Made by a program: the position numbers and the translations under genes. A model generated the notes under the pieces. That model ran no database searches. It saw nothing but the letters and a program-made list of their open reading frames with translations, and was not told the origin of the DNA. From Negaprion brevirostris (Eukaryota), in contig JARDVH010000140.1 in assembly GCA_030324005.1 (NCBI GenBank), positions 6,171,160-6,235,159 on the forward strand: a DNA stretch of 64,000 nt. Direction: 5' to 3'. This document shows, in pieces, positions 54,041-64,000 of the stretch (its first letter is position 1; the number at the start of each line of letters is the position of its first letter).

Positions 54041-55462
54041 TGTCACACATTAATATATAACCCATAACAATTTGAATCATGAAGTGAAACATATTATCCT
54101 AGCCAAATTCAAGATGCAAAATTTATGATCCAGGCGGGCTCCATAAAACACTTGTGTTTCTGACTTGAACAGTAACAGCTGTCCGTCATAATGTTCCAAT
54201 AATGCCACTACAGAAATGTTTAAAATAAGCTACAAACCCTGGCAAACCAAAAGCAGTGCTTTGATCAGTATTAGAACAAGACCTTAAAGAATAATGCGAT
54301 GCTATTTGAGGGTTAAAAGGAATCATTTAGGGTCATGATGAATGTAACGAAATTTCTTATGATAGATAATTATTACTTCTATCACCTATTAATTAGCATC
54401 CTCCTTTTAACCCACTAGTAAACTGAAATTGTGTCCCTTTCTCACCAATACACTTACCTGTGGAAATGATTTCACTGTTTATTTACCAGCAAAGGCTTGC
54501 ACCATTTTAAAATATTTTTCCCCAATAAACTATTATCCAATACAGTAACTCAAATTTTTCAGCATTCACGGCAATCTTGCAATCATGCCACTGAATTTTC
54601 ACTGTACCTTTCACCTGACTATCTTTTCCATACACCAAATGTTTGAAAAACAGTGTCAGTTAAGTAGCAGACGTCTGCCACACAACTTAAAGATGGCCAA
54701 TTTGGTCACACCATTCCTAAGGTATGAAAATTCAATTATTGCCTAATTGGAGAGGGAATTAGTGTGGGTATGAGATGATCACTTGTCTTTTGTTATGGGG
54801 CTTCAGTTTATGTCTGGATTAAATAAAATCAAGACTACCTGAAGATGATTTACAACAAAAAACAAAGACAAAACAGATCAATTAATCCTACAGTCCAAAG
54901 GATTTAAATGTGCACTTTAGGGAGATTTGGGGGACAAAAGATTGTATATTGTAAATCAAGCTAAGGCAATGGGAGTCAGACTACTTCAACACACGTTGAA
55001 CAGCCATCACACCAACACAAAAGGTAAAGCACAGGAGGGAGAAGAATGGGACCTAGAAAAAACAAAAATCTCTGCATTTCTACAATTTCTTAAAAACAAT
55101 GGAATGCCCATTAAATATTGCTGATGTACCATTCTTTTCTTCAAGTACAATTACCACAGCCAAACCGTGGAACATCAGCCTTGTAAATAAGCAGGATTAT
55201 ATGACTAGCACCTATCGACATCAACCATTAATCAGGCAGGGCAATGAGGTTAAAACGATATGCTGCATGTCATTTGTGTCTCACAAAGCCCAGGGCGACT
55301 ATTTCTGCTCATGTTGCTCACCTACTTGTTTTTCTTGTTTGCTTCATTGTTACATAAATCCGAAGTCATAACACCAAGCTCAGATATCAGCAGTCTGAGA
55401 TAAGTACGAGTGAATGGGCAAGTGATTCAAATTCTATTGAGACTCCATGGTAAAATTTTCTG

Positions 55463-55673
55463 AAGTCTCTCAACATCAGGTTGAAGTCCAACAGGTTTAT
55501 TTGGTAGCGCAAGCTTTTGGAGTGTCGTTCCTTCTCCAGGTGAGTGAAGAGTTCATTCACCCGAAGGAGGAGTGGCATTCCGAAAGCTACCAAATAAACC
55601 TGTTGGACTTTAACCTGGTGTTGAGAGACTTCTTACTGTGCTTACCCCAGTCAACACGGGCATCTCCGCATCA
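55463..55673. mobile_element. Penelope-like family A fold-back pair with two degenerate hammerhead cores back to back
   Basis: Arms 55463-55548 and 55552-55631 with a 3-nt loop. Flanks AAAATTTTCTGA (55452-55463) and AAGATTTACTGA (55673-55684). Confidence 0.8.
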
Positions 55674-62330: not shown

Positions 62331-62471
<141 letters not shown>

Positions 62472-62565
62472 TTAGTATTTTTAATTTCGAGAGGAAGAAA
62501 GTTACACAACAGCTTTTTCTTGGAAATGGTATGCCAGTAACCATACCTTTTAATGTCTTAACCTA

Positions 62566-62717
62566 GAACAGTAAGAAGTCTCACAACACCAGGTTAAAGT
62601 TCAACAGGTTATTTGGGAGCACAAAATTTGGTGCTACCAAATAAACTTGTTGGGTTTAATCTGGCGTTGAGAGACTTCTCACTGCGCCTAGCCCAGTCCA
62701 ATGCCGGCATTTTCACA
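62566..62717. mobile_element. Penelope-like family A fold-back pair lacking the ribozyme core, with a perfect 10-bp TSD
   Basis: Arms 62569-62622 (-) and 62631-62717 (+); TCTTAACCTA at 62556-62565 and 62718-62727. Confidence 0.82.
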
Positions 62718-64000
62718 TCTTAACCTACCAATGCAGAATATCTTCCAAATTCAGATTAGCTATTCAGTTATAAGTTGTAACAAAATGAATAGATAATTTA
62801 CAATCTCAGTAAAATGACAAGATTTTCTCACAGCTATCCATCTTNNNNNNNNNNNNNNNNNNNNNNNNNNNNNNNNNNNNNNNNNNNNNNNNNNNNNNNN
62901 NNNNNNNNNNNNNNNNNNNNNNNNNNNNNNNNNNNNNNNNACCTACAACAGACGTTAAACTAACCGGCCTATAATTCCCTGCCTTTTGCCTGCCACAATT
63001 TCATGATACACTTGAGAAATTTTGGATCTCTGATCTTCCCTTTCCAAAAAGCTCATCTGGGATCATTTTAACGTCTAAATTTTGTGCTAACAAATGAAAC
63101 CCTCGTCCTTCTGCTCTGCCAGCTATGATCAATGAATTGCAGGCAATCTGGTACATTCCTTGCATTTTTAAATTCTATTTCCTCATTCCTCCTCAAAACC
63201 ACAATTTGCAGCCAATGCTATTCTATGACAAGTCCTAATAGGAAGCAACCACAAATGGTCCAGGATGGCTTTTCCCTTCTTGACTGGCTGAAGCATCCAA
63301 GATCCTGCTGATGTTAAATACTCTGGGCACATAGGTAATTTCAACAATCACCTCTTCTCAGATTTTTGATCCGTTTTCTGTTTAAATTTAGGAGATTTTT
63401 CTCTCTGTATATTTCTAATTGTTTATTGGATAAATTCCAATCGGGAAATAGTAGGAAACTTATGTTCTTGAATGAACAGCCATTTGTCCCATTGTAAAGT
63501 GTTACTATTCAAATTTGTAGCTATCGCCTTTAGAATATATTATGAAAGCTGCCAGTTTCCCAATTTAAGATTTCTTCAGTTCTTAAGTGTTTCAAATGGT
63601 TTGCTCAAAGAGCAACTTTCCCAGCTTTGCGCCTTAGTGCACCAGAGTACTAATTGGTTAAGTGGAAATTCACTTTCCCAACACTAAACACAAGGGCTTT
63701 CTCTCAGCTAAGAGGGGTGGTGGTCAGAGGCAAGAAAACAGAACATAGATCAAGCAGAGGTTGATCAACATTTTACAGGAATTAACTGCACCCACATTAA
63801 TAGCTGGATACAATATGACATACGGAATGGAGGTGGCCATCTGCCAATACATTTTGACTCATGAGAAAAATAGCTCCCTGGAGTGCAGTCTTAAAGGAAA
63901 ACAAGTCTCAAACCTAGTTTGGAAATCGAGCCAGGTTAGAAATTGCCCCTAAACTCTGATTCCAAGTTTTGCGCTGCTCAATTGCACATGGCTGGGAACA

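Follow-up and report, generated by a model that had tools for sequence, protein, structure and literature searches.

A minimal inverted-repeat-plus-tail Penelope-like insertion in a shark RPS6KB1 intron, and an arm-specific step in family fold-backs at a predicted hammerhead cut

Penelope-like elements (PLEs) are described as inserting in units in which a 5′-truncated direct repeat lies beside an inverted copy, with a tail of 30-40 bp and target duplications of 8-10 bp; palindromic junctions, a hammerhead ribozyme in the pLTR and the order RT then GIY-YIG are further features of the group (PMC8557442, PMC3846280). For PAc, a Poseidon element of Anolis, the protein was reported to cut and extend both strands in vitro, with two start sites bracketing the tail; ribozyme-dead mutants inserted normally in vitro, and no RNA-seq reads were found to end at the cut (PMC11167929). 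In R2 elements with an HDV-like ribozyme, cleavage sets the 5′ end of genomic copies (PMC3774820, PMC11331408), and from what these sources describe R2 comes nearest, by analogy, to a case in which genomic 5′ junctions preserve the record of a ribozyme cut. Non-LTR retrozymes, which are non-autonomous, derived from PLEs and carry a type I hammerhead, have been reported in a cartilaginous fish (10.64898/2026.07.22.740005).

We analysed a window of 64,000 nucleotides (the whole stretch of shark DNA under study), in which one short insertion, the focal copy, was found to have the following layout.

62556..62565, plus strand: left target duplication (TSD), TCTTAACCTA, from the sequence and a family-wide duplication test
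62566..62622, minus strand: inverted, tail-less copy of the 3′ end of the PLE pLTR, which may extend to 62624 or 62630
62623..62630, no strand: 8-nt centre AAAATTTG, readable in two ways: as hammerhead GAAAGCTT in reverse complement, now decayed, or as the end of an arm followed by ATTTGG copied again from a template
62631..62687, plus strand: direct pLTR arm with the first bases GTGCTACC, at +1 of the cut if of the 6-nt subtype and at +8 if of the 13-nt subtype
62688..62717, plus strand: PLE tail, 30 nt, on the direct arm only
62718..62727, plus strand: right TSD, from the sequence
62336..62436, minus strand: host RPS6KB1 exon, 101 nt, with the acceptor AG at 62438-62437 (context, outside the element)

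The two copies of TCTTAACCTA that flank the insertion are the only ones in the 64-kb window, confirming the perfect 10-bp TSD claimed in a sequence-only reading of this DNA; the first two bases of TCTTAACCTA overlap the 3′ end of the Penelope-like family. The succession of inverted arm, 8-nt spacer and direct arm given in that reading was likewise recovered, the inverted arm terminating in GGGAGCAC at 62622. The arms 62569-62626 and 62627-62684, of 58 nt each, were 78% complementary, and the hairpin fold had a z-score of -8.2, with none of 200 shuffles being equally good. The ATTTGG of 62611-62616 was repeated at 62626-62631, in the region of the spacer. The copy has no ORF and retains just the final ~90 nt of the element. 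It is a minimal inverted-repeat-plus-tail Penelope-like unit within a 10-bp target duplication, and on its own it is an ordinary intronic repeat and weak evidence for cleavage in vivo. The neighbouring exon matched human S6K1 in all 33 residues, and the distance from its acceptor was 118 nt to the TSD and 128 nt to the element, in agreement with the ~130 nt from the RPS6KB1 acceptor put forward before; we take this exon to be exon 7. In RPS6KB1 pre-mRNA, the hairpin 62566-62687 (about -73 kcal/mol) would form ~128 nt before the acceptor.

When compared with the inverted pLTR-plus-tail units of endonuclease-bearing (EN+) PLEs, the layout of the focal copy and its family shared all the features listed above, and PLE fold-backs as such have already been described. 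The differences are that the focal copy has been cut down to ~90 nt and that the accessible texts of PMC8557442 and PMC3846280 make no mention of an arm-specific step at the cut. Non-LTR retrozymes are described as head-to-tail tandems with intact ribozymes, whereas the focal copy consists of one head-to-head unit flanked by a target duplication, and membership in this group was rejected on the lack of a head-to-tail tandem in the focal copy. A MITE reading was also dropped, as the repeats are head-to-head, the tail is one-sided and the repeats are joined to a retroelement ORF.

The family comprised at least 6,560 tailed copies with exact anchors. In the long copies L376, L157, L010 and L364, a broken ORF end adjoins the pLTR; shark homologues of this ORF end (77-89%) matched RVT_1 at E 3e-10 and GIY-YIG at E 8e-4, the latter below the curated cut-off, and no Pfam or NCBIfam match was obtained with the ORF piece of L376 alone. 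The sequence CHSNLCKTC, a CX4CX2C linker, was present between RT and endonuclease in P0001, P0009 and the long copies, and a CX2-5CxxC motif at this position is described as marking the Neptune clade (PMC8557442). Judged by its coding sequence, the family is an EN+ Penelope-like element, and by the linker motif it probably belongs to the Neptune clade. An inverted arm was present in 32 of 70 unselected copies, and the inverted arms begin near one common point across the family. Target duplications of at least 8 nt (8-18 nt) were found at 80 of 135 family fold-backs and at none of 135 mismatched controls, and the fold-back centres measured 2-3 nt at the shortest and several hundred nt at the longest. 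In two copies (L004 and L442) several hundred nt of the endonuclease region were included in the inverted arm, and L004 was tailed at both ends.

The family arms carry a predicted minimal type I hammerhead. Measured against the features described for such ribozymes (PMC4209133), 123 core-bearing arms fitted, with CUGANGA and GAAA boxes, a bulged base, G10.1-C11.1, stem II, a palindromic 15.2-16.2, an NUH triplet and stem I all present. Stem II was 89-98% paired at four positions, with exchange among A-U, G-C and G-U; stem I consisted of 3-4 pairs, and base 17 was A, U or C in 121 of the 123 arms. The predicted hammerhead and its cut thus fall where the first reading had placed them. Rfam gave no hammerhead in the window or in eight loci, and its miRNA-like hairpin matches in the same sequences were discarded as palindrome matches. 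Two spacings were found in the family, the predicted cut lying either 6 nt or 13 nt before CCAAA, and the 13-nt form has a second GCTT-GTGCTA 7 nt downstream of the cut.

The place of the focal arms relative to the cut depends on this spacing. Among the 37 core-bearing arms with a GTGC-type start like that of the focal copy, 23 were of the 6-nt and 14 of the 13-nt form, and the nearest neighbours were mixed; typing from arm and tail gave model evidence of 19.95 vs 18.08 bits, which does not separate the two spacings. Under the 13-nt form the focal arms start at +6 and +8 (+1 being the first base after the cut), and if the copy is of the 6-nt form, its direct arm begins somewhere from +1 to +3. 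The best fit under the 6-nt form has the spacer as a decayed reverse complement of GAAAGCTT, with the inverted arm reaching to -8 and the direct arm at +1, and in a model without templated insertions the class posterior was 0.69 for this decayed-core fit against 0.01 for both arms at the cut. Templated re-copies resembling ATTTGG were seen in 7 of 89 family centres, and the focal inverted arm bears AA matching -1/-2. Both arms at the cut would be incompatible with the 13-nt subtype or with an intact AAGCTTTC centre. Earlier, both arms had been taken to start at the cut and the core to be absent. The arm coordinates and the 8-nt spacer stood, but the cut position on this copy was not established, the subtype being ambiguous, and nor was the absence of the core, the spacer being best read as decayed core under the 6-nt form. 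The chances that the direct arm starts at the cut appear evenly balanced, and it is doubtful that both arms lie within 2 nt of it with no core.

The arm ends were mapped in the main, 13-nt subfamily, which contained 193 fold-backs with centres of 0-34 nt and 299 with centres of 35-75 nt, with a local excess at 19-28 nt. Independent extension of the arms over-ran the palindromic centres, and a partition model was therefore used instead, in which the insertion penalty was of our own choosing and templated inserts were ignored; 89 of the 193 short-centre fold-backs were partitioned, two copies resembling the short spacing and centres containing N having been dropped beforehand. The direct-arm ends of these 89 had a posterior mass of 27.6 at +2..-1 and 8.8 at -2..-8, and the inverted-arm ends had 14.5 and 26.7 in the same intervals. 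Among fold-backs with one short arm, 19 of the long direct arms ended at the cut and 5 beyond it, compared with 7 and 24 of the long inverted arms (Fisher p=4e-5). The junction and its mirror share identical microhomology and so provide an internal control, indicating that sequence alone cannot yield the arm asymmetry. In at least 35 of the 89 short fold-backs (24+7+4) it was the inverted arm that belonged to the more 5′ class, and both arms were at the cut in 8 of 89, with 5.6 expected from independent arm ends.

After 29 of the 299 longer-centre fold-backs had been added (1 of 30 was dropped), ends per nt were weighted over centres of 0-75 nt; the values for +8..+3, +2..-1 and -2..-8 were 15.7, 24.4 and 8.6 for direct ends and 14.4, 16.0 and 13.8 for inverted ends. 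In a test unrestricted by centre length we obtained ~75 ends at +4/+3, ~52 at +1/-1 and ~9 at -3/-4, scaled from 11, 10 and 5 of the 30 first-listed loci among 244, 157 and 55 matches, respectively. The arm-end samples are first-listed loci with exact anchors in an assembly that is gapped at many palindromes, and those of the unrestricted test were classed by eye; 20 random 10-kb stretches held too few family copies to be used. The ratio of +1/-1 to -3/-4 was 5.6 (range 2.2-16.5), or 4.5 without the stem-I microhomology cases. A sharp truncation peak at the cut, the pattern that the earlier model called for, was not seen: relative to the 3′ side the ratio of +1/-1 to +4/+3 in the unrestricted test was 0.7 (95% range 0.34-1.43), and the ends stepped down instead. 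In this subfamily, ends of the tail-bearing arm become about 5-fold rarer immediately 5′ of the predicted cut, a step absent from the inverted arm. The share of copies concerned is, on a rough estimate, a few percent.

Of 65 assessable unselected copies, 58 retained the core's 3′ half on the direct arm (5 of the 70, with gaps, were left out of this count, and the inverted arm was counted over all 70), indicating that most templates were uncut; no copy ending exactly at +1 was found by eye among the 65. At the arm junctions, base -1 was often the templated A. In the centres of L288, L276, L094 and L280, TG immediately preceded +1, or CA followed the inverted arm, doubling the first post-cut bases; such a repeated TG occurred in about 6 junctions, half of which were accounted for by templated TTTGG, and it could be slippage at the template end. 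Many junctions (in L104, L117, L152 and others) clustered at ACTCAC/GTGAGT 5′ of the core, where the antisense strand reads CAG-GTGAGT, the consensus splice donor.

No arm asymmetry was detected among the 28 copies analysed of the 6-nt CCCAC subfamily (1 of 29 was dropped), and its step ratio of 3.4 fell to 1.9 (0.57-6.9), which is not significant, without the stem-I microhomology cases. The natural control, a step shifting with the ribozyme, was thus not obtained. Short-centre fold-backs with the TTTAC tail (193) were far commoner than those with the CCCAC tail (29), beyond the shares of the two among unselected copies, and this imbalance may come from the repeated GCTA/GCTTT microhomology in the 13-nt form.

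We consider it probable that these copies arose by a two-cDNA PLE insertion in which, in a minority of family events, the tail-bearing cDNA stopped at the hammerhead cut or immediately 3′ of it. Two staggered nicks would prime the cDNAs and give the target duplication; one cDNA would start at the tail end and the other ~30 nt upstream, both would run toward the 5′ end of the RNA, and their 3′ ends would be joined through microhomology, sometimes with templated inserts. Most templates would be uncut; in a fraction the ribozyme would already have cleaved, leaving a wall from which the ends were trimmed back during end-joining. Such pre-cut templates offer the simplest reading of the step, and one that we slightly favour. 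The arm-end step may thus record self-cutting of ribozyme RNA in vivo, of which a single focal copy is no proof. The broader proposal, that shark PLE hammerheads cleave in vivo, the tail-primed cDNA running off cut RNA in a few percent of cases and the second cDNA using uncut RNA, is advanced tentatively; it would imply two templates, or cleavage between the two priming events, within one integration complex. We found no report of an arm-specific step at a hammerhead cut in the main texts of the open-access literature, and this family-level step is the result worth following: since the two arms lend themselves to separate mapping in thousands of dated fold-backs, cutting in vivo and the use of one or two templates become testable from genomes.

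The same element and the same joining of two cDNAs could give the step if RT paused at the folded, uncut hammerhead, either at stem I or at a dimeric stem III. We regard this account as a whole as possible, and if the step is real, pausing as its cause comes somewhat short of an even chance. The A at -1 is often included, the templates are mostly uncut, minimal hammerheads are described as weakly active in vitro (PMC4209133), and insertion in vitro is reported to need no cleavage (PMC11167929), all of which would suit a pause. A pause at stem I, however, would be expected at +4/+5, and there is no clear reason for the inverted arm to escape it; moreover, a non-A base stood right before +1 in ~8 of 11-14 judgeable junctions, a count made by eye that is not statistically decisive.

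The first reading had proposed that RNA already processed by the hammerhead was copied and the element then duplicated in inverted orientation during integration; taken as copying up to the 5′ end of the cleaved RNA with snap-back of the cDNA, this model has both focal arms start at the cut. The start of the direct arm at +1 under the 6-nt subtype, the possibility that ATTTGG is a templated insert and the 8 of 89 family fold-backs with both arms at the cut agree with it, but the last count is close to that expected from independent ends, the AA in the focal inverted arm corresponds to -1/-2, and decayed core is one possible reading of the spacer. Nor can the direct cDNA, by snapping back, produce an inverted arm that reaches further 5′, and duplication in inverted orientation after copying accordingly failed for those 35 or more copies. 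Together with the core kept in most unselected copies, this indicates that simple snap-back from cleaved RNA was not the rule, and we judge it unlikely for the focal copy. The idea of copying from hammerhead-processed RNA survived in part, in the direct-arm step at the cut in the main subfamily; for most copies it gave way to copying from uncleaved RNA. That both arms of the focal copy contained core sequence at insertion, and that its palindrome centre disappeared later through hairpin instability or mis-assembly, is very improbable, since such loss should hit both arms alike and the family is strongly arm-asymmetric (an argument at the level of the family, not of the focal copy), even though the assembly is gapped at the centres of many family palindromes and templated inserts also arise in break repair.

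The preferred two-cDNA insertion resembles what is described for PAc in the cutting and extension of two strands, the two starts bracketing the tail and a protein-assisted hammerhead (PMC11167929). It differs in that, in the text of that study, uncut RNA is the main substrate of PAc and no RNA ends lie at the cut, whereas in the shark a minority of genomic ends suggests a wall; the CX4CX2C linker of the shark element also points to Neptune, not Poseidon. R2 is similar in that its 5′ junctions show snap-back, untemplated bases and joining through microhomology (PMC11331408, PMC3774820). The cut is described as defining the 5′ end as a rule in R2, whereas in the shark family it would do so in only a few percent, and with a minimal hammerhead.

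Two further fold-backs were observed in the window. The one at 55462-55670 is a second fold-back of the same PLE family with the core in both arms, and in its direct arm the few bases surrounding the cut, between a pair of GCT motifs, are missing. The other, at 886-1018, forms a strong hairpin with Rfam miRNA matches below the gathering score, and it looks like a fold-back of another repeat family with a decayed hammerhead-like core at its centre.
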